This document shows positions 1 to 6,532 of a stretch of 6,532 bases of DNA, piece by piece. The position numbers were made by a program, and so were the translations under genes. The stretch lies in the IMG/VR virus record IMGVR_UViG_2711768009_000014, one strand, 5' to 3'. This DNA is from a virus (taxonomy: Duplodnaviria; Heunggongvirae; Uroviricota; Caudoviricetes). The notes under the pieces were generated by a model that saw only the letters and a program-made list of their open reading frames with translations, searched no databases and was not told the DNA's origin. Every line of letters begins with the position of its first letter. Positions within the stretch are counted from its first letter, which is position 1.

Positions 1-140
1 CATTGAGATTTTCTACAATCGTCAGCGTCGTCACTCTCGTCTGGGGAATATCTCCCCGGCAGCCTTCAGGGAAAAATATCATCAGATGGCTGCTTAAAAA
101 AAGAACAAATGGTAGTGTCCGCTATTGCCAGTACACCTCA
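1..140 (+). mobile_element. IS3-family insertion sequence, right end only (orfB 3' end plus terminal inverted repeat ending ...CA at 140); the rest of the element lies outside the window
   Basis: Bases 1-140 are the exact reverse complement of 6393-6532; identity stops abruptly at 140/141 and 6393/6392. Contains the C-terminal coding end of a transposase with the IS3-family OrfB signature ...FYNRQRRHSRLG..SP..F... The specific IS name cannot be assigned from memory. Confidence 0.8.
2..97 (+). CDS. IS3-family transposase OrfB, C-terminal 31 codons (5'-partial, runs off window start)
   Basis: Frame 2 translation IEIFYNRQRRHSRLGNISPAAFREKYHQMAA* with stop TAA at 95-97; the YNRQRRHS motif is typical of the C-terminus of IS3-family integrase-domain transposases. 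Confidence 0.75.
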   Translation: MEIFYNRQRRHSRLGNISPAAFREKYHQMAA

Positions 141-325
141 GGATAGCGGTCATGTGATGCCGGTTTCCCGGTAACTCAGCACCGGTATCTGAGTCAACGT
201 TTTCTCTACTGGGTCATTTCCGATACGCCCTGCCTGCTGACAGGCTTTCATCACATCTGAAAATATAGCACCCTGACTGATACTGTAGTACCTAAGGTTC
301 CAGAAACTGTGATGTATCCGGCACA

Positions 326-347
326 GAAAAGCCCCTCCGGAGAGGGC
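326..347 (-). terminator. Possible rho-independent terminator downstream of the tRNA cluster
   Basis: Minus strand reads CCCTC-tccg-GAGGG (5-bp stem) followed by GCTTTTCTGTG; short stem, imperfect U-run. Confidence 0.3.
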
Positions 348-584
348 TGGAGAGTGGCGCTATGTGCCATTGCATGATGCCGGGTGCCTCCCGGTGAATT
401 CAGTACCAGCACCTGAATCCGCGATTATCCCATATACCTACTCGCTGATTGCCCCTCCGCACAGGGGGATTCACCATGCCAGTTTCTTTTAACAAACTCC
501 CCGCAAAACAGACAACTGTCAACCGTCTGAATTGTGAGACATTTAAAAAAAAGGCCCGCAAAAGCGAGCCAGGGAAAATAAGTG

Positions 585-661
585 TGGCGCGTTGTACTGG
601 ATTCGAACCAGTGACCGATTGCTTAGAAGGCAATTGCTCTGTCCGGCTGAGCTAACAACGC
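585..661 (-). tRNA. tRNA-Arg (anticodon UCU)
   Basis: Minus-strand sequence GCGTTGT-TA-GCTC-AGCCGGACA-GAGC-A-ATTGC-CTTCTAA-GCAAT-CGGTC-ACTGG-TTCGAAT-CCAGT-ACAACGC-G-CCA folds as a canonical cloverleaf with perfect 7-bp acceptor stem, GTTCGAATC T-loop, encoded CCA; anticodon loop CT-TCT-AA. Confidence 0.85.
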
Positions 662-674
662 ATGATGCAGATAA

Positions 675-751
675 TGGACCGCCATCGGGGACTTGAACCC
701 CGCGCAGCCAGCTTCGAAGGCTGGCGCTCTTTCCTGATGAGCTAATGGCGG
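675..751 (-). tRNA. tRNA-Arg (anticodon UCG)
   Basis: Minus-strand CCGCCAT-TA-GCTC-ATCAGGAAA-GAGC-G-CCAGC-CTTCGAA-GCTGG-CTGCG-CGGGG-TTCAAGT-CCCCG-ATGGCGG-T-CCA; perfect acceptor, anticodon and T stems; anticodon loop CT-TCG-AA. The 5' nucleotide is C (C1-G72), unusual but tolerated. Confidence 0.8.
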
Positions 752-758
752 TATGTGA

Positions 759-834
759 TGGTGGCCCTTGCTGGATTTGAACCAGCGACCTGGCGATTAT
801 GAGTCGCTCGCTCTCACCACTGAGCTAAAGGGCC
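759..834 (-). tRNA. tRNA with CAU anticodon (tRNA-Ile2 lysidine-type or tRNA-Met; cannot be distinguished from sequence alone)
   Basis: Minus-strand GGCCCTT-TA-GCTC-AGTGGTGA-GAGC-G-AGCGA-CTCATAA-TCGCC-AGGTC-GCTGG-TTCAAAT-CCAGC-AAGGGCC-A-CCA; perfect 7-bp acceptor stem, encoded CCA. A CAU/Arg/Arg tRNA trio in this order matches the ileZ-argN-argO arrangement recalled from Stx-converting lambdoid phages. Confidence 0.85.
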
Positions 835-874
835 GGGAGCCGCATAATAACGACGCGTAATTAATTCTTCAATA

Positions 875-1828
875 TCATCCGTTCTGGCTGACTAAATCCT
901 GTACTTCCCGAACCGTCTGCTCAAAACGTTCAGTCTCCAGCTCAACGCCAATTGCACGACGCCCGAGCGCCAGTGCCGCTTTCACTGTCGAACCCAACCC
1001 CATGAAAAAATCTGCAATCAGGTCACCCGGACGACTGCTAGCGCTGATTATCTGCTGCAGCATTTCTGCCGGTTTTTCGCACGGATGTTTCCCGGGATAG
1101 AACTGCACCGGTTTATGCGTCCACACATCGGTATACGGCACCTGCACCGTCACGCCAAAATACCGCCGCAGATGTTTATATTCACTCAGCAGCTCCGCAT
1201 ACTGCCGGTTCAGTGAGGTATACGTATCCACCAGCTGGTGGTGGAGCTTTTCCAGTTCACCACGCCGATGCTTCTCTTCTGCCACCCGGGCAAACAGCGC
1301 CTGTAATTTCAGATAATCGCTTTCATTCGGCAACTGCCACTGACCGGCACTGAACCAGTGCGACACCATGTTTTTCTTTCCTGTGGCATCTGCAATCTGT
1401 TTTGCCGTTATCCCCAGGGCAGCTCGCGCATCACGAAAGTAAGAAATCAGCGGGGCCATCACATGCTGTTTCAGTGCACTGCCCTTCGCCGCATACCCGG
1501 CATCTTTCGGACGATACGGCCCCTGATAATGTTCCGCGAACAGAATGCGCTCTGTGGCGGGGAAATACGCCCGCAGGCTTTCCTTGTTGCATCCGTTCCA
1601 GCGTCCGGACGGCTTCGCCCAGATAATATGGTTCAGCACACTGAAGCGTTCACGCATCATGATTTCGATATCAGATGCCAGGCGATGACCACAGAACAGG
1701 TAAAGACTTCCGGCAGGTTTCAGCACCCGCCAGAACTGCGCCAGACACTGGTCCAGCCACTTCAGGTAATCATCGTCGCCCTTCCACTGGTTATCCCAGC
1801 CCTCAGGCTTCACTTTAAAGTACGGCGG
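875..1828 (-). CDS. DNA methyltransferase, beta-class (N6-adenine or N4-cytosine), 5'-partial because the N-terminus is interrupted by the N gap
   Basis: ORF 875..1813 extends in frame to the gap edge, where the codons read PPYFK (catalytic motif IV, DPPY; base 1829 is consistent with a GAC Asp codon). Near the C-terminus the AdoMet-binding motif I appears as DFFMGLGST. Motif IV before motif I defines the beta permutation. No restriction endonuclease candidate is adjacent. Confidence 0.85.
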   Translation of the reverse strand, partial: PPYFKVKPEGWDNQWKGDDDYLKWLDQCLAQFWRVLKPAGSLYLFCGHRLASDIEIMMRERFSVLNHIIWAKPSGRWNGCNKESLRAYFPATERILFAEHYQGPYRPKDAGYAAKGSALKQHVMAPLISYFRDARAALGITAKQIADATGKKNMVSHWFSAGQWQLPNESDYLKLQALFARVAEEKHRRGELEKLHHQLVDTYTSLNRQYAELLSEYKHLRRYFGVTVQVPYTDVWTHKPVQFYPGKHPCEKPAEMLQQIISASSRPGDLIADFFMGLGSTVKAALALGRRAIGVELETERFEQTVREVQDLVSQNG

Positions 1829-1829
1829 G

Positions 1830-1860
1830 NNNNNNNNNNNNNNNNNNNNNNNNNNNNNNN
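1830..1860. other. Run of 31 N (assembly gap or masked bases)
   Basis: Literal n characters at 1830-1860; true length and sequence unknown, so reading frame across the gap is not defined. Confidence 0.99.
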
Positions 1861-1952
1861 GCGCAAAGCAGTGGGCCTGAGGTTTGCTTGTGAACCCAAC
1901 GCATGAGCAGATGGCTGGTGGGTGCCCCTAACACCCACCAGCCGCCCATTTA

Positions 1953-1984
1953 CCACAAATAAAAAAGCCTTCACTGCGGAAGGC
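1953..1984 (-). terminator. Rho-independent terminator overlapping the stop codon of the 65-aa ORF
   Basis: Minus strand: GCCTTC-cgcagt-GAAGGC (6-bp perfect stem) followed by TTTTTTATTTGTGG. Confidence 0.55.
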
Positions 1985-2168
1985 GTCTGTAACAACCGAA
2001 CTGATAGTCTGCCAGACCCGCCATAACCAGCTGGGTCAGTATTAACTGGCAGCGTTCGCGTGAAAGGTAAGTATTCTGCGCTATCTCCCCGACTGTCGCC
2101 GGTTCGGTAACGCTTAATTCATTAAACACCACTCTGGCGGTTTCTGTCATATCCTGCTGTTTTAGCAT
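1971..2168 (-). CDS. Hypothetical small protein (65 aa), possible helix-turn-helix DNA-binding fold; first ORF downstream of pR'/tR'
   Basis: ATG at 2168-2166 preceded by AAAGGAAAAGAC; protein MLKQQDMTETARVVFNELSVTEPATVGEIAQNTYLSRERCQLILTQLVMAGLADYQFGCYRRLPQ. The segment TVGEIAQNTYLSRERCQLILTQL resembles an HTH recognition helix; no family assigned. Confidence 0.45.
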   Translation of the reverse strand: MLKQQDMTETARVVFNELSVTEPATVGEIAQNTYLSRERCQLILTQLVMAGLADYQFGCYRRLPQ

Positions 2169-2288
2169 GTCTTTTCCTTTTCCGGTTAACGTGACACACC
2201 AATAACTCTTGTCGAAAAAGCCAGCAAGCTGAAAGACAGGTATTCACCGCCACCAGCGCGTTTACTGTACTGACGCGATTTCAGTCAT

Positions 2289-2310
2289 AAAAAACCCGCT
2301 CGGCGGCGGG
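2289..2310 (-). terminator. tR'-like rho-independent terminator of the late promoter leader
   Basis: Minus strand CCCGC-cgccga-GCGGG followed by TTTTTTATG; lies about 45-65 nt downstream of the predicted pR' start. Confidence 0.6.
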
Positions 2311-2351
2311 TTGTAGAAACTCTTCTAACGTCAGGCATAAAACGCCCATCG

Positions 2352-2387
2352 TTATAACGAATTTACCACAGATTCCGGAAAAATCAA
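2352..2387 (-). promoter_or_regulatory. Late promoter pR'-like (Q-dependent), with lambda-type -10 TAAATT and downstream AACGATGGG sigma70 pause element
   Basis: Minus strand, immediately after the Q stop codon: TTGATT (2387-2382) - 16 nt - TAAATT (2365-2360) - cgttata - ACGATGGG. Lambda pR' as I recall it has TTGACT, TAAATT and AACGATGGG at matching spacing. Confidence 0.6.
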
Positions 2388-2392
2388 CCTTG

Positions 2393-3214
2393 TTACCTAG
2401 TTACCTTTTTTAACTGCCGCTCAGCCCATGCTTCTTCAATATCAAACCGGGTCACCAGCGCATCATAAAATTTCTTAACTGTTTTTTCCCATGACGCGCG
2501 TGTTATCTGGTTTGTCACCTCGCATATAGCATTAAATGCCTCCGTTGATGGTAGTCTTTCATAGCCACGACCACCACAACGCTGGCAGTCTCTGATAACA
2601 GGCATACCACGTTTTACCGACTCTTCACGATGAATGGCGACACCACGCCCACGGCAATCCTTACAGGCGGTGGAAACCTCACCCTTTCCGCCACACTCCG
2701 GACAGGCAACTTTTACCACCTCCCTGACTTTTTTCCATTCTTCCCAGTAAGACGGATACACACCTTTCGTACACTTTGCCCATACCGGCGGCTTACCATC
2801 CGGATACTGGATCTTGTTTGTAAAAACCTCGCTTTCAATAAATTTTTTTCCGTGACAGCAGGGGCACTGTTTTTTGCTCGCCGCGCTACGGGCATAATCT
2901 TCAAACGCATACGAAGCCATAATACGCATCACTGCCGGTTTTATTTCTGCCGGGAGTTTTCTTAACGCCGCCACGCGATCACACCGACTGAGTGCATATT
3001 CTGTCAGCAATTCTGTTGCCCGCTCTCTGTCATTCATACTAATGCCCATTTTCCCAAGGAACGCAGAAACCCCCATCTCAGCCCGATTCTGTGTCATGCC
3101 CTGCGCGGCCATCACATCAGTGATACTCAGCGCATCTTTCGACGTTGAGGCCGATGCATCAGTCAGGCCGGGGGATTTTGGGGAGTAGTATTTCGGTAAA
3201 TCTTCCAGTTTCAT
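2393..3214 (-). CDS. Q: Late-gene antitermination protein Q (lambda Q family) with an expanded cysteine-rich zinc-finger region
   Basis: 273 aa; recognisable blocks shared with lambda Q as recalled: N-terminal M-[KR]-LE...K-[FY]-x-SPKSP, TDVMAAxGM, AxYAFxDYxRSAA, C-terminal WxxTVKxxYDALV. The central region carries CPCCHGKK, CPECGGKG, CKDCRGRG and CQRCGGRG (CxxCxGxG repeats). Start ATG overlaps the rusA stop (ATGA); followed directly by the pR'-like promoter. Confidence 0.8.
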   Translation of the reverse strand: MKLEDLPKYYSPKSPGLTDASASTSKDALSITDVMAAQGMTQNRAEMGVSAFLGKMGISMNDRERATELLTEYALSRCDRVAALRKLPAEIKPAVMRIMASYAFEDYARSAASKKQCPCCHGKKFIESEVFTNKIQYPDGKPPVWAKCTKGVYPSYWEEWKKVREVVKVACPECGGKGEVSTACKDCRGRGVAIHREESVKRGMPVIRDCQRCGGRGYERLPSTEAFNAICEVTNQITRASWEKTVKKFYDALVTRFDIEEAWAERQLKKVTR

Positions 3215-3591
3215 TTTTTGACCTGCCCTTCAAGCATTATGGGATAAATCTTCACCCCCAGACGTCCACCAGATACTGGCTGAGCACGAACGATATTGAT
3301 TTCATCAAACTGCTCATCGTCCATTAGCAACCCCGCATGCGTCAGCGCATCCAGCGGCGCTTTCAGAATATTGTCCAGGTCACGGCGGCGCTTATCCGGT
3401 GGTTCTGCAATAATTTTTATTGCCAACCTTCCGGACAGGCTTAATTTCAGCCGCTGCTGGCGAACAATAAGCGCCACTGCCCGGCGATAACGCTCCCCGG
3501 CTTTTGATACAAAATATGTGCTGCCACGACGACGCCAGTAAGTGTTCACCGTCGGCGGGTAAGGTAAAACAAATTCTATGCGCTCGGTCAT
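3211..3591 (-). CDS. rusA: RusA-family Holliday junction resolvase (crossover junction endodeoxyribonuclease)
   Basis: 126 aa; motifs LPYPPTVN, PDKRRRDLDN, KAPLDALTHAGLLMDDEQF and SGGRLGVKI align with E. coli RusA (LPWPPSNN, PDRRRRDLDN, KAAFDALTKAGFWLDDAQV, KGGRLELTI). ATG abuts the upstream stop (TAAATG). Confidence 0.9.
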   Translation of the reverse strand: MTERIEFVLPYPPTVNTYWRRRGSTYFVSKAGERYRRAVALIVRQQRLKLSLSGRLAIKIIAEPPDKRRRDLDNILKAPLDALTHAGLLMDDEQFDEINIVRAQPVSGGRLGVKIYPIMLEGQVKK

Positions 3592-4650
3592 TTATGCTTT
3601 CCACTTCAGAACACCCGAATTTCTCGCGTGCATTAAAAAACGAATCAGCAACAACAGCTGACTGCCGTGTTTCTCTTCAAAATCTTTTACTCCGGCATGT
3701 AGTTCGTTACGGCATTTACGGCATAACGGAATAACAAACAAATCATCAGCCTTTGTTCCCATCCCTCCCAGTCCATGACCAATGATGTGATGCGGATCAT
3801 CTGCCTGATTGCCACACGTCATGCATTTCTGCGTTTTTACCCAGCGCGTGTATACAGGCATCTCTTCCCGTTGTGATTTCTGGCGCTGGAGATACTGAGC
3901 CGGTGACTCCGGATCAACGGCAATGCTGACCACCGTCTTTTCCTGTGGTGGGTTCTGTTGCTGGTGGACGTGAGGCAGTAACGCAATATTTTTTGTGCGC
4001 TGCTTCAGTATGCTGGTGGCTGTCTGCTCTCCCGGTATGATGTCGCTTTCACTGTACACAGAGCGAATTTTTTCCGCACGCAACCCCAGCGAACGACGTA
4101 ATACCGCTTCCGGTAGCGCGTCCGCCACCTGATTGCGGACCGCCCACCAGGATAATTCAGCCAGAGATAATTCACGCTCCTGCGTACCGCTTATTGCGTG
4201 ACCGATGACGTCAATCATCCATGCTGACAGGTTTTGATGAGCAAGTTGCTCGAGTGATTCGGATGTCTGGTCACGCAGCTGGTTGTCGCAGTGCCAGCAC
4301 AACACCATTGCGCCGGTACCATAACGGTGAATGACGGTTTCGCTGTGATGATAATCGCCGTGTGGCCACTGGCAGGATTTAATATGGCGCAACAGCCAGT
4401 CAGACAATGCACCAGCACCACCAGCAGCACGAATCACCCGTGCGTTACTGAAAAACGGCAGCAATGTTTTGTCTTCCACCAGCGGCTGGCGAGCGGCAGG
4501 AACGACCCCGGACGGCAGATTACGCATGCTTTTTGGTTCCGGCTCCACCAGTATTCTGCCGTTATGGAATGCTGACATTGATTCACGGCCTGGCTTAACG
4601 ATAACCAGACCGAGTTCCGGTACCAGAACAGGTCGAAGTAATACCCGCAC
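3592..4650 (-). CDS. Prophage DUF968-like protein (YdfU-like) with C-terminal HNH-like Cys/His motif
   Basis: 352-aa ORF with GTG start preceded by a strong SD (tctGGAGGtaatGTG); C-terminal CMTCGNQADDPHHIIGHG...CRKCRNELH resembles an HNH/zinc-ribbon nuclease motif. Size and position (immediately upstream of rusA and Q) match the ydfU-type gene of Qin-like prophages; family assignment is from memory. Alternative ATG start at 4578. Confidence 0.6.
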   Translation of the reverse strand: MRVLLRPVLVPELGLVIVKPGRESMSAFHNGRILVEPEPKSMRNLPSGVVPAARQPLVEDKTLLPFFSNARVIRAAGGAGALSDWLLRHIKSCQWPHGDYHHSETVIHRYGTGAMVLCWHCDNQLRDQTSESLEQLAHQNLSAWMIDVIGHAISGTQERELSLAELSWWAVRNQVADALPEAVLRRSLGLRAEKIRSVYSESDIIPGEQTATSILKQRTKNIALLPHVHQQQNPPQEKTVVSIAVDPESPAQYLQRQKSQREEMPVYTRWVKTQKCMTCGNQADDPHHIIGHGLGGMGTKADDLFVIPLCRKCRNELHAGVKDFEEKHGSQLLLLIRFLMHARNSGVLKWKA

Positions 4651-4725
4651 ATTACCTCCAGATCCGTTGCTGGAATGTGCGGGACGGACGCGTTGGCCGT
4701 TCGGAGTAAGGGAGCCTGACGGAGA

Positions 4726-5007
4726 TTATCCAGTGACGGTAGTCGAGGCTAAGGGCTTTTTTAACCTCGCATCCGCGCCTGCGGTAACACTGAATGAGCC
4801 ATTCGGCCTGTTCTTCAGTGCATGGGGGATGCTGGTACCAATCAGATTTAAATGCGTGAGAGCGCCGCCCGTGCCTGCTGGCAAAGACGGCTGAATTATC
4901 AGAATTGTGTAGTCTGGAAGGCAGTGGCTGACAATAGCGCCATTCTCAACGCGCACAGTATAGAGGCCATCTTCACTAAAAATTTCACGTAATTCTTCGA
5001 TTTTCAT
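4726..5007 (-). CDS. Hypothetical protein (93 aa from ATG at 5007)
   Basis: ATG at 5007-5005 preceded by a good SD (ctGGAAGGAttctgttgATG). N-terminal 40 aa (MKIEELREIFSEDGLYTVRVENGAIVSHCLPDYTILIIQ) look protein-like; the C-terminal half is Pro/Gly/Thr/Ala-rich and unusual. Confidence 0.45.
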   Translation of the reverse strand: MKIEELREIFSEDGLYTVRVENGAIVSHCLPDYTILIIQPSLPAGTGGALTHLNLIGTSIPHALKNRPNGSFSVTAGADARLKKPLASTTVTG

Positions 5008-5089
5008 CAACAGAATCCTTCCAGATAAATAGCACTCCCCTGTTCGGGGTCCATCCCTCTTCTCCCTGCGCGCTACTTAAGTATTTTTG

Positions 5090-5119
5090 ATTCTATTCCG
5101 GCACCATCTAAAACTTCAA
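5090..5119 (-). promoter_or_regulatory. Candidate sigma70 promoter for the 93aa-DUF968-rusA-Q operon
   Basis: Minus strand TTGAAG - 18 nt - TAGAAT, directly downstream of the hok terminator and about 85 nt upstream of the 93-aa ORF start; spacer slightly long. Confidence 0.35.
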
Positions 5120-5126
5120 ACGCGTT

Positions 5127-5159
5127 GAAAATAAAAACAAAAACCCGCCGAAGCGGGTT
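5127..5159 (-). terminator. Rho-independent terminator at the 3' end of the hok mRNA
   Basis: Minus strand AACCCGC-ttcg-GCGGGTT followed by TTTTGTTTTTATTTT; about 70 nt downstream of the hok stop, as expected for a hok transcript with a 3' fold-back region. Confidence 0.7.
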
Positions 5160-5227
5160 AAGTGTGGGTGCATTGAGGATGCCTGCCCCATCAGAGGTGG
5201 CGAGGGATTTCTCCCCCGCCTGGTCTC

Positions 5228-5383
5228 TTACTCCTCAGGTTCGTAAGCTGTGAAGACAGCGACCTCCGTCTGGCCGGTTCGAATTCGTACCTCGCAGAGG
5301 TCTTTCCTCGTTACCAGTGCCGTCACTATGACGGTTAAACAGATGACGATCAGGGCGATTAACATCGCCTTTTGCTGCTTCAT
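5228..5383 (-). CDS. hok: Hok/Gef-family membrane toxin (type I toxin), HokD/RelF-like, 51 aa
   Basis: MKQQKAMLIALIVICLTVIVTALVTRKDLCEVRIRTGQTEVAVFTAYEPEE: single transmembrane helix plus the conserved C-terminal ...RKxLCEVRIR..G.xEVAAF.AYE block of Hok proteins; SD GGAG 9 nt upstream. The leader (GCTTGAGGCT ... TAGCCTCTTAC ... GCAAGGAGAAG.AGGC.ATGAA) parallels the plasmid R1 hok mRNA leader as recalled. Confidence 0.9.
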   Translation of the reverse strand: MKQQKAMLIALIVICLTVIVTALVTRKDLCEVRIRTGQTEVAVFTAYEPEE

Positions 5384-5431
5384 AGCCTGCTTCTCCTTGC
5401 CTTTCGGCACGTAAGAGGCTAACCTAGATTT

Positions 5432-5505
5432 GCCGTTCATAGATTGAGCCTCAGATTAATGTTAAGCGTCTTGCCGGACGCGTAATGTTAACTGGGGCTT
5501 TTCTC
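5432..5505 (+). ncRNA. Putative Sok-like antisense RNA (antitoxin of the hok locus)
   Basis: On the plus strand inside the hok leader: TTGCCT (5397-5402) - 17 nt - TAACCT (5420-5425), with a transcript complementary to the mok-like SD/start region and ending near GGGGCTTTTCTCT (about 5495-5505), which resembles the 3' end of R1 Sok (GGGGCUAUCUUCUUU). Ends are approximate; no clean terminator hairpin identified. Confidence 0.4.
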
Positions 5506-5559
5506 TATCTGCCTTTTGGTGTTCATGCCTGAGACAGATAGCCTCAAGCACCCGCTGCA

Positions 5560-5588
5560 ATTCTACTTAACTCTCCTTTTCCCGCAAA
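5560..5588 (-). promoter_or_regulatory. Candidate hok mRNA promoter
   Basis: Minus strand TTTGCG - 17 nt - TAGAAT, with predicted start about 7 nt downstream at ..GGGTGCTTGAGGCT, corresponding to the conserved 5' end of hok mRNAs. Confidence 0.5.
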
Positions 5589-5674
5589 CCGTTTTTATCC
5601 CCAGCGGCAAATCGAATACACCACCAGCGCCACCGCCATCGCAATTCCTACCGTTGTTAATGCTTCAGGCCAGG

Positions 5675-6019
5675 TCATCGTAAAATATCCTCCACGCTTA
5701 TCAGTCCGTTCCGCTCCAGATAACTCATCGCCTTATCCGGTAATTTGCAGTCTGGCTTCGCTTTCCTCAGTTGCCAGGTTAACTGCTTTACCAGCATGGT
5801 TAACTCATCGACCAGACGCTGATATCCCACTGGTTTGTATTCATGCAATTTACCGGCTGGCTCTGCTGCCAGCGATACCAGTGCGATTTCCAGAACAGCA
5901 ATATCCATCTTATATGTGCGGATGATGTCATGGTCGATTGTGCCCGGTATGCACAGTCTCTGTGCTTCAATAGTCTCCTCTGCGTGAGCTATTAACTGCT
6001 CTCTGGTAAAAGTCGTCAT
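5675..6019 (-). CDS. Hypothetical protein (114 aa), longer member of a paralogous pair
   Basis: ATG overlaps the stop of the upstream 55-aa ORF (ATGA). Shares N-terminal MTTFTRE (vs MTTITKE) and the block [11 protein letters not shown] (vs [11 protein letters not shown]) with the 55-aa ORF. No family recognised. Confidence 0.55.
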
Positions 6020-6183
6020 GCCGTAGCCCCTTCTTGATATTTTTCAAACCAGAACACAACCGGCTCTGCTTCCAGCGATGCCAGCGCAATCCGTGCCAGT
6101 TCCATTTGTTCACCACGGGTAAGCCCGTTTTCAAGCGGGTTTTTAATGAACAATTCAATACGTTCTTTGGTAATAGTGGTCAT
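6016..6183 (-). CDS. Hypothetical small protein (55 aa), shorter member of the paralogous pair; below the 60-aa cutoff of the ORF track
   Basis: ATG at 6183-6181 preceded by a strong SD (taaGGAGtaacacATG); translation [55 protein letters not shown]; stop overlaps the start of the 114-aa ORF. Confidence 0.5.
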
Positions 6184-6193
6184 GTGTTACTCC

Positions 6194-6392
6194 TTAACCC
6201 GCAGTGCTTTCAACTGATGAGGGGAACAAAATCTTTTCATCAAACCCTGCATTCATATCATGAACAGCAACACACCAATCCATCGACGAACGATTATCAA
6301 GAGCCTCCATGATTTCATCCATGCGGCGTAGGTCATACAGGTAAATGCTTTTATCGCCAATGGTGTAAAAGCCAATTTTTTTCGGTGATGGA
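6194..6392 (-). pseudogene. 3' fragment (about 65 codons) of a gene truncated by the IS insertion
   Basis: Open frame runs from inside the IS end (6424) across the junction at 6393/6392 to the stop at 6194; the first 10 codons are IS-derived, so only ...PSPKKIGFYTIGDKSIYLYDLRRMDEIMEALDNRSSMDWCVAVHDMNAGFDEKILFPSSVESTAG* is native. Product not recognised. Confidence 0.5.
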
Positions 6393-6532
6393 TGAGGTGT
6401 ACTGGCAATAGCGGACACTACCATTTGTTCTTTTTTTAAGCAGCCATCTGATGATATTTTTCCCTGAAGGCTGCCGGGGAGATATTCCCCAGACGAGAGT
6501 GACGACGCTGACGATTGTAGAAAATCTCAATG
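6393..6532 (-). mobile_element. Second copy of the same IS3-family element end, inverted orientation; the rest of the element lies outside the window
   Basis: Exact reverse complement of 1-140. Confidence 0.8.
6436..6531 (-). CDS. IS3-family transposase OrfB C-terminal fragment (5'-partial, runs off window end)
   Basis: Mirror image of 2..97; same translation ...IEIFYNRQRRHSRLGNISPAAFREKYHQMAA*. Confidence 0.75.
   Translation of the reverse strand: MEIFYNRQRRHSRLGNISPAAFREKYHQMAA

Follow-up and report, generated by a model that had tools for sequence, protein, structure and literature searches.

Two inverted IS600 copies, probably of independent arrival, around the nin-Q region of a defective lambdoid prophage in Shigella sonnei

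The window, that is, the whole 6,532-nt stretch of viral DNA analysed here (IMG/VR record IMGVR_UViG_2711768009_000014), was compared with complete bacterial chromosomes. Its bases 1-1829 were 100% and its bases 1861-6532 were 99.96% identical to CP000038.1 and to about 20-25 other complete chromosomes (CP000038.1 is S. sonnei Ss046; CP060117 is S. sonnei UKMCC1015). The window carries the following features, in which IS-A and IS-B denote the two IS600 copies at its ends:

1-140, plus strand: IS-B, IRR-proximal 140 nt of IS600, with the last 31 orfB codons at 2-94 and the stop at 95-97
141-143, no strand: GGA, inner copy of the IS-B target-site duplication, from comparison of occupied and empty sites
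319-508, minus strand: STnc100-like sRNA element (RF02076, 123.6 bits against a gathering score of 47), within the 444 bp that separate the tRNAs from IS-B
585-834, minus strand: phage tRNA cluster, three predicted tRNAs
585-661, minus strand: tRNA-Arg (TCT), last of the cluster
675-751, minus strand: tRNA-Arg (TCG)
759-834, minus strand: tRNA-Met/Ile2 (CAT); RefSeq annotates the homologous CAT tRNA as tRNA-Ile
875-1860, minus strand: N6/N4 DNA methyltransferase (PF01555, 1.3e-35), 352 aa in complete genomes
1971-2168, minus strand: 65-aa ORF between Q and the methylase, hypothetical in relatives
2393-3214, minus strand: late-gene antiterminator Q (PF03589, 1.6e-53)
3211-3591, minus strand: RusA Holliday-junction resolvase (PF05866, 1.5e-16)
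3592-4650, minus strand: DUF968/YdfU-family protein with an HNH-like C-terminal part (PF06147, 2.6e-62)
4726-5010, minus strand: fusion ORF from a 250-bp deletion with its junction at 4919/4920, from comparison with complete genomes
5228-5553, minus strand: hok/sok type I toxin-antitoxin locus (PF01848, 3e-23; RF01794, 112.4 bits)
5675-6183, minus strand: two small overlapping nin-region ORFs, from gene calls in complete genomes
6194-6392, minus strand: nin-region gene remnant, the 3' 199 bp of an 87-codon gene cut by IS-A, from comparison with an intact homologue
6393-6532, minus strand: IS-A, IRR-proximal 140 nt of IS600, from the repeat finder and comparison with complete genomes

The cargo is thus ordinary nin/Q-region content, comprising hok/sok, DUF968, RusA, Q, a DNA methylase and three tRNAs. 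The start and first codons of the methyltransferase are masked by a run of N at 1830-1860, in which 31 N stand for 144 real bases. The 65-aa ORF gave a weak TrmB-like HTH match below the cutoff and is followed by a terminator-like hairpin (1984-1967); a similar hairpin downstream of Q (2312-2293) is a candidate tR', and a third lies in the region of the STnc100-like element (348-330). The DUF968/YdfU protein occurred as an exact copy in 3132 blocks of the assembly collection. Hok has 51 aa (5228-5383), with a longer 70-aa ORF reaching 5440 and a hokD annotation in a relative, and the leader region at 5378-5553 matched the Rfam sok model. The two small ORFs (114 aa, 5675-6019; 55 aa, 6016-6183) received no family assignment. 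As geometry, the proposed read-through from IS-A toward these two ORFs and hok is correct. A promoter scan of the window yielded no excess over shuffled sequence (5 found, 6.4 expected), so nothing can be said on IS-driven transcription.

We then considered the window's arms. The repeat finder returned positions 1-140 and 6393-6532 as a 140-nt inverted repeat, 100% complementary, with 6252 nt between the arms, and a perfect match of this length within 6.5 kb cannot have arisen by chance. Bases 2-97 translated in reading frame 2 to IEIFYNRQRRHSRLGNISPAAFREKYHQMAA and a stop, which is the C-terminus of IS600 orfB by comparison with a full copy. In 2900 E. coli genomes, bases 1-140 had 100% matches whose annotation was 'IS3-like element IS600 family transposase'. 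From the translation and the annotated matches, each arm is the orfB-proximal (IRR) end and reads into the segment. These results agreed with an earlier note made from the sequence alone, which had described a prophage segment between inverted IS3-family copies, with perfectly reverse-complementary ends, each the orfB-proximal end of the same IS, and with both transposases pointing inward. Its placement of the left copy 444 bp past the last tRNA also matched the distance between tRNA-Arg (TCT) and the IS end at position 140.

The window itself holds just 140 nt of each IS600 copy. This value has no biological meaning as a length, since the repeat reaches the window's end on either side and stops where the window stops; the real repeat is 1264 bp. 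In Ss046 and about 20-25 other complete chromosomes, IS-A and IS-B were both full-length 1264-bp IS600 elements, inverted and inward-reading, at the following positions of the complete-genome locus L021:

L021:6995-8258: full IS-A
L021:14624-15887, minus strand: full IS-B

The two copies differed by 2 mismatches over 1264 bp (99.8% identity), giving near-identical inverted homology, and together with a further copy, IS-C, the three IS600 copies differed at 1-2 positions, all with ends TGAGGT...ACCTCA. The true spacing between IS-A and IS-B in complete genomes was 6365 bp rather than 6252, which is explained by the masked bases in the N run. The element showed the expected IS3-family features: a length of 1264 bp, inside the 1.2-1.5 kb range; imperfect terminal inverted repeats of the 5'-TG...CA-3' type (TGAGGTAGCC... 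and ...GTACACCTCA, the latter ending at position 140 in IS-B); a 100-aa orfA, an A7G frameshift motif (AAAAAAAG) at position 316 and orfB in the -1 frame; and HTH and DDE (rve) transposase domains in precomputed Pfam assignments of its products (PF01527 (HTH_Tnp_1), PF13276, PF00665 (rve) and PF13683). Gene calls gave products of 100 aa and 272 aa, or a 385-aa fusion. A 3-bp target-site duplication was found for IS-B and for IS-A, and the identity of the element as IS600 followed from the 100% annotated matches of bases 1-140. In length, orfA/orfB organization with the A7G frameshift, and 3-bp duplication, it is the same element as IS600 in Shigella genomes. Given the near-identical complete genomes, the window's own copies are probably full length as well.

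The window is most likely a short-read contig that stops 140 nt inside the repeat at each side. Blocks with the 76-aa ORF that spans the left junction were commonest in contigs of 5-10 kb (n=325), followed by 2-5 kb (n=274), a size distribution that is expected if short-read assemblies break at IS600. A repeat that meets both window ends exactly, as is typical of graph-based short-read contigs, would also fit arms that are two sides of one IS copy, or a hairpin or chimeric contig. We consider such an assembly artefact extremely improbable. Two full copies with distinct outer flanks lie 6365 bp apart in more than 20 independently assembled chromosomes, and a single IS copy could not supply the IRR end twice, as the two arms do. 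This excludes the single permuted or misassembled IS that the earlier note had named as its refutation, and the wider context that it had proposed to check, taken from complete chromosomes, returned two 1264-bp copies.

To trace how the pair was formed, the target sites were compared. IS-B is flanked on both sides by its own 3-bp target duplication (TCC/GGA): the occupied site reads ...gctatcc[IS]tccttccagg..., and the empty site in L003 reads ...gctatccttccagg.... The exact empty site was present in 3 genomes (L003, L008 and L018), all carrying IS-A, one of the three being documented S. sonnei. IS-B would therefore have arrived after IS-A, 444 bp past the tRNAs, by simple transposition, duplicating GGA on its own account. 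Absence of IS-B co-occurred with retention of the 250-bp stretch whose deletion took the 3' end of rem together with the beginning of the ORF that follows; with it intact, the same three loci encode Rem (PF27490) and a 92-aa ORF.

The immediate flanks of IS-A today are TTT/TCC, without a duplication. The intact homologue of the truncated gene in E. coli TUM10008 has 264 bp, of which the window keeps the 3' 199 bp up to ...GGTGATGGA, where the IS begins, as expected from the truncation that had been read from the window. The GGA at 6390-6392 belongs to the target duplication that IS-A originally made; uninterrupted in L001, the gene reads ...GATGGA followed directly by CAGCGATC.... The 5' piece missing from the window begins with the second GGA and is found in inverted orientation at L021:5189-5260, about 1.8 kb past IS-A, where it abuts a tyrosine-integrase C-terminal remnant beside ompW. 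Each half of the divided target gene therefore retains a GGA, and DUF977 is inverted relative to the TUM10008 layout. The left end of IS-A has thus been rearranged. IS-A had inserted into the 87-codon nin gene, making the GGA duplication, and the later rearrangement inverted the upstream block from DUF977 to the gene's 5' piece and took away the immunity, replication and integration region; its outcome is seen in the sequences, and its mechanism is inferred. No IS600 copy or end was found in any locus examined where the integrase remnant meets the GGA piece, indicating that a plain homologous inversion between two IS does not fully explain the left side of IS-A. A single mutual IS-A/IS-C inversion as the source of the missing duplications of both copies was also considered and rejected, as TTT/TCC and AAC/ATT are not reverse-complement pairs. 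On the duplications that the earlier note had proposed to look for, IS-B has its own, none surrounds the pair, and that of IS-A is split.

We conclude, with a probability of about 0.9, that the window derives from the S. sonnei chromosome and represents the nin-Q-late-regulatory region of a defective lambdoid prophage beside ompW, bracketed by two inverted IS600 copies that arrived independently. The pair would not be a mobile unit but a side effect of the spread of IS600 in S. sonnei. Such a structure, a decayed lambda-like prophage piece between separately inserted IS600 copies, is of a well-known kind.

The earlier note had also recognized the geometry of a composite transposon. The same intact, near-identical IS does stand inverted on both sides of cargo, so the geometry fits a unit of two IS600 and 6.25 kb (tRNAs, methylase, Q, hok/sok) that has moved or can move. 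Its history or activity as a unit is very improbable. The outer flanks, ...aatttt before IS-A and tccttcc... after IS-B, form no single duplication around the whole, and every complete S. sonnei chromosome read had the unit at the same single locus. No unit with these junctions was found among 5426 complete E. coli genomes or 72,556 plasmids; the sole plasmid matches were relatives free of the IS, with about 94% identity. The left junction, searched exactly, gave no match in a species-representative genome collection, in which S. sonnei probably has no separate representative. Genomes with altered outer flanks were changed on one side only (L010, L017 and L020 at IS-A, L018 at IS-C). Transposition in the IS3 family proceeds by copy-out-paste-in; the outer ends of the unit would both be IRL, and we know of no documented IS600 product in the form of an 8.9-kb circle made from two like ends. 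Given the IS-B duplication and empty site in genomes already carrying IS-A, the lack of a flanking duplication and the single locus, the composite reading is one of geometry only. Like Tn10, Tn5 and Tn9, the locus has one IS twice around cargo, inverted as in Tn10 and Tn5; unlike them, it lacks a unit duplication, was apparently assembled stepwise in place, stays at a single locus and involves a copy-out-paste-in IS3-family element.

Inversion by recombination between the copies had likewise been proposed. Direct IS600 repeats reportedly drive stx amplification and deletion. The 1264-bp inverted homology with 2 mismatches could serve as a substrate for RecA-mediated inversion, and in L015, one isolate, the 13.6-kb interval between IS-A and IS-C was inverted, with the outer flanks swapped and reverse-complemented. 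IS600-mediated inversion at the locus was thereby borne out, but for IS-A and IS-C; no isomer of the 6.25-kb IS-A/IS-B segment occurred among about 25 complete chromosomes. In all of these, IS-A adjoined DUF977 or another flank, and the SASA gene in none. A short-flank lookup for hidden isomers returned the same ten places, again none with SASA beside IS-A; this lookup groups similar places, so a rare isomer could escape it. That the segment flips in populations, so that Q/pR' is uncoupled from nanS-p and the holin gene downstream, is thus unlikely, even though IS-flanked inversions are reported in S. sonnei (PMC12795559) and S. dysenteriae 1 (PMC7819885). Beyond IS-C, the prophage has no lysozyme or structural genes, so flipping would have no obvious regulatory output. 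It is also highly doubtful that the module (rare-codon tRNAs, hok/sok, methylase, Q) is kept as a useful cassette, invertible or mobilisable at low frequency; if it were, its orientation would alter expression of nanS-p and holin, or of the cargo through IS read-through.

IS-mediated decay and rearrangement of Shigella prophages are described in PMC7819885 (citing Yang et al. 2005), and IS600 has the same consequences here (gene truncation, deletions, inversions between inverted copies); without difference of substance, the present locus is one case of a general phenomenon. The 13.6-kb inversion lies above the 7-kb cut-off of the S. sonnei structural variation survey and was not found in its accessible part (PMC12795559). 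S. dysenteriae type 1 has a defective Stx prophage with IS600 upstream of stx, according to PMC7819885 (McDonough and Butterton 1999 cited there). Both prophages are lambdoid remnants without structural genes, with many IS and with IS600 in the Q-tRNA-toxin-lysis region; here there is no stx, the site is ompW rather than sapC-ychK, and the copies are inverted, so inversion is possible where direct repeats would give amplification or deletion. The ompW lambdoid prophages of E. coli (PPompW) and Stx2a phages (Stx2_EH1910) were 90-93% identical to the segment and shared the order ydfU/DUF968, rusA, Q, 65-aa ORF, methylase, three tRNAs, (stx), nanS-p/yjhS and holin. They are complete phages without the IS600 pair, whereas the S. 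sonnei copy lacks the immunity, replication, lysis (lysozyme onward) and morphogenesis genes. IS-B lies ~400 bp from the stx2AB position of the related Stx2a phage.

Beyond bookkeeping, the significance of the locus is small. Where a short contig ends on both sides in a perfect inverted repeat, the repeat should be taken to mean that the assembly broke inside a multicopy IS, and its length depends on the assembler or the window. The locus also illustrates on a small scale how two independent IS hits can be told from a composite transposon by their target-site duplications and empty sites. Three features are recorded for S. sonnei genomics: an IS-B insertion that varies by lineage, with a co-occurring 250-bp rem deletion; a split GGA duplication that bears witness to an old rearrangement beside IS-A; and, in one isolate, an inversion of 13.6 kb mediated by IS600.

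The repeat finder showed that bases 1-140 and 6393-6532 of the window are 140-nt arms, 100% complementary and separated by 6252 nt. Since this repeat spans both the first and the last base, its length is set by the window limits, and what is really repeated is the entire IS, not 140 nt. Bases 2-97 translate in frame 2 to IEIFYNRQRRHSRLGNISPAAFREKYHQMAA followed by a stop, the arm terminates in ...GTACACCTCA, and 100% matches to the arm (2900 complete E. coli genomes) carry an IS600 (IS3 family) transposase annotation. Translation and annotated matches therefore agree with the earlier note that each arm is the orfB-proximal end of an IS, here the orfB/IRR end of IS600, and that both copies read inward, as the arms point into the enclosed DNA. 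In complete chromosomes, each arm is part of an IS600 with termini TGAGGTAGCC... and ...GTACACCTCA, encoding orfA (100 aa), a frameshift motif (AAAAAAAG, position 316) and orfB; both copies are full length at 1264 bp. In S. sonnei Ss046, the right copy (IS-A), the left copy (IS-B) and a third one (IS-C), 3.5 kb beyond IS-B and oriented like it, mutually differ at 1-2 positions. The true spacing from IS-A to IS-B is 6365 bp; it appears as 6252 because a run of 31 N (1830-1860) replaces 144 bases present in all complete genomes, so that coordinates to its right understate the true distance by 113 bases. Separate 1264-bp copies 6365 bp apart exclude a single permuted or misassembled IS, and complete chromosomes confirmed the description of inverted IS3-family copies around a prophage segment. 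The enclosed cargo genes all lie on the minus strand and are listed in phage order:

6194-6392, minus: nin gene truncated by IS-A
6016-6183 and 5675-6019, minus: two small ORFs (55 and 114 aa), no Pfam family
5228-5553, minus: hok with sok/leader region (PF01848, RF01794)
4726-5010, minus: rem fusion ORF (94 aa), 250-bp deletion at 4919/4920
3592-4650, minus: DUF968/YdfU
3211-3591, minus: RusA
2393-3214, minus: antiterminator Q, with a terminator-like hairpin at 2312-2293
1971-2168, minus: 65-aa ORF
875 to the N-run, minus: N6/N4 DNA methylase
585-834, minus: tRNA-Met/Ile2(CAT), tRNA-Arg(TCG), tRNA-Arg(TCT)
319-508, minus: STnc100-like sRNA element in the spacer that separates the tRNAs from IS-B (strong Rfam match, 123.6 bits)

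The N-run hides the methylase start and first codons (ATGCTTAATACTG...). The 114-aa and 55-aa ORFs share the start MTT.T.E and a motif ...SL.AEP..., which suggests that they are diverged paralogues; they also contain the two copies of a 29-nt direct repeat with 86% identity (5859-5887 and 6062-6090). The Rfam sok match (5378-5553) falls on the hok strand (minus), with the antisense RNA expected on the opposite strand; this same-strand match is probably an artefact of model construction and not a feature of the locus.

The window matched S. sonnei chromosomes, including CP000038.1 (Ss046, lineage III; PMC5447701), with 100% identity over 1-1829 and 99.96% over 1861-6532. For exact matching, the probe was a 76-aa ORF (6194-6424) that begins within the right IS arm and crosses the junction. 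The assembly collection has it in 795 blocks, of which 83 include contigs >1 Mb, and the DUF968 protein as a second probe added further loci, CP000038.1 among them. The commonest contig classes for the junction ORF were 5-10 kb (325 blocks) and 2-5 kb (274 blocks), the pattern that breakage of short-read assemblies at IS600 would produce, and we infer that the window itself is such a contig. The junctions were absent from complete E. coli genomes (5426), where the best matches span 327-6392 only; the left junction had no exact match among species-representative genomes, and no copy with the segment's IS600 junctions was found in 72,556 plasmids. In every complete S. sonnei chromosome read, the segment lies at the ompW locus, which has been public in complete genomes since the Ss046 sequence.

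IS-A now lacks a duplication, with TTT outside and TCC inside. Its target gene is intact in the IS-free E. coli TUM10008 (87 codons, ...CGGTGATGGA followed by CAGCGATC...) and stops at the IS in the window (...CGGTGATGGA, then IS), which bears out the proposed truncation of 6194-6392 by the right copy. The missing piece, GGA followed by CAGCGATC..., was found inverted in Ss046 (L021:5189-5260), 1.8 kb past the outer end of IS-A, indicating that the original GGA duplication survives, split. The block between this piece and IS-A, which carries a DUF977 gene short by ~11 codons, an IS1 and small ORFs, has the opposite orientation to its E. coli counterpart. At its far end it adjoins a tyrosine-integrase C-terminal remnant (...EQGVDTKILLGHSNQKMTDIYNDVRGKEW) beside ompW; the remnant runs without a break into the inverted 5' gene piece (Ss046, L021:4838-5260, outside the window), and no IS is present at this junction (...ACACCACA joined to GGACAGCG). 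Because one breakpoint is exactly the IS-A terminus, the sequence points to an IS-end-associated event of some kind beside IS-A; the other junction has no IS today.

IS-B is flanked on either side by TCC (GGA in window orientation, 141-143). It is missing from three chromosomes, L003, L008 (CP060117, S. sonnei UKMCC1015) and L018, in which the empty site is unbroken (...gctatccttccagg...) and all of which carry IS-A. Its own duplication and the empty site in IS-A carriers mean that IS-B arrived after IS-A by simple insertion. Compared with these three chromosomes, the 250-bp deletion took the 3' portion of rem (PF27490) together with the beginning of the ORF that follows. Among the examined loci it coincides with IS-B presence, which makes the two look like markers of one S. 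sonnei sublineage. In L003, a second, diverged copy of the STnc100 region lies on the far side of the IS-B insertion point, ~70-300 bp past the IS-B outer end (bases 304-533 of the empty-site fragment; insertion point 603).

The geometry had been read as that of a composite transposon. The triplets outside the pair, TTT and TCC, do not form a duplication: IS-B has its own TCC, IS-A its split GGA, and none surrounds the pair. Nor was the unit found elsewhere in the chromosomes and plasmids searched, and the composite-transposon implication failed on these two defining tests. Independent events built the IS-A/IS-B structure in place; it was not brought in as a composite transposon.

Inversion of the segment between the copies had also been suggested. 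L015 (JBEAAF010000002.1), with IS600 at 6997-8259 and 19349-20612, differs from all other chromosomes in that the sequences outside IS-A and IS-C are swapped and reverse-complemented, the signature of inversion of the 13.6-kb IS-A/IS-C interval by recombination between inverted copies. The suggested process is therefore at work at this locus. The 6.25-kb IS-A/IS-B isomer was found in none of ~25 chromosomes, and a second lookup that used a short flank gave none either; places whose neighbours are similar are collapsed in these lookups, which might hide a rare isomer. Inversion of the IS-A/IS-B segment is thus plausible, and recorded solely for the neighbouring IS pair. IS-flanked inversions have been reported for genomes of S. 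sonnei (PMC12795559) and S. dysenteriae 1 (PMC7819885). Other flank differences are one-sided, lying outside IS-A in L010, L017 and L020 and outside IS-C in L018. In the former three (CP045932.1, LR213449.1), unrelated phage-like DNA (Dam, resolvase) replaces the IS-A outer flank, and in L007/L016 (CP179977.1) the Mu-like genes Com and Mom adjoin DUF977, so the locus shows additional rearrangements associated with IS elements or phages. L019 (CP022672.1) has two further insertions within the segment: a 1250-bp IS3-family element that interrupts the truncated gene and is flanked by a 3-bp duplication (matching window 6305-6307), and an insert of ~1.34 kb in tRNA-Arg(TCG), where 13 bp of target are duplicated (matching window 688-700).

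The orfB of IS-A reads in the same direction as the truncated gene, the small ORFs and hok. From the orfB stop to 6183 the sequence showed no terminator-like site, and a promoter scan gave no excess over shuffled sequence. Read-through from IS-A into these genes would follow from geometry only.

The S. sonnei segment shares its gene order with its closest phages, which are E. coli prophages integrated at ompW and Stx2a-converting phages. Phage Stx2_EH1910 carries stx2AB at the point matching window position ~542, ~400 bp from the IS-B site, with the STnc100 element directly downstream of stx2B. Past IS-B, the S. sonnei prophage has nanS-p (SASA esterase), holin and DUF1327. Next comes IS-C, which abuts tail-fibre-assembly genes, and this leaves the prophage without lysozyme and without most of its morphogenesis genes; the regions for immunity and replication have also been lost. 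The S. sonnei prophage is a remnant, and the locus is an ordinary case of IS600 expansion within a decaying Shigella prophage.
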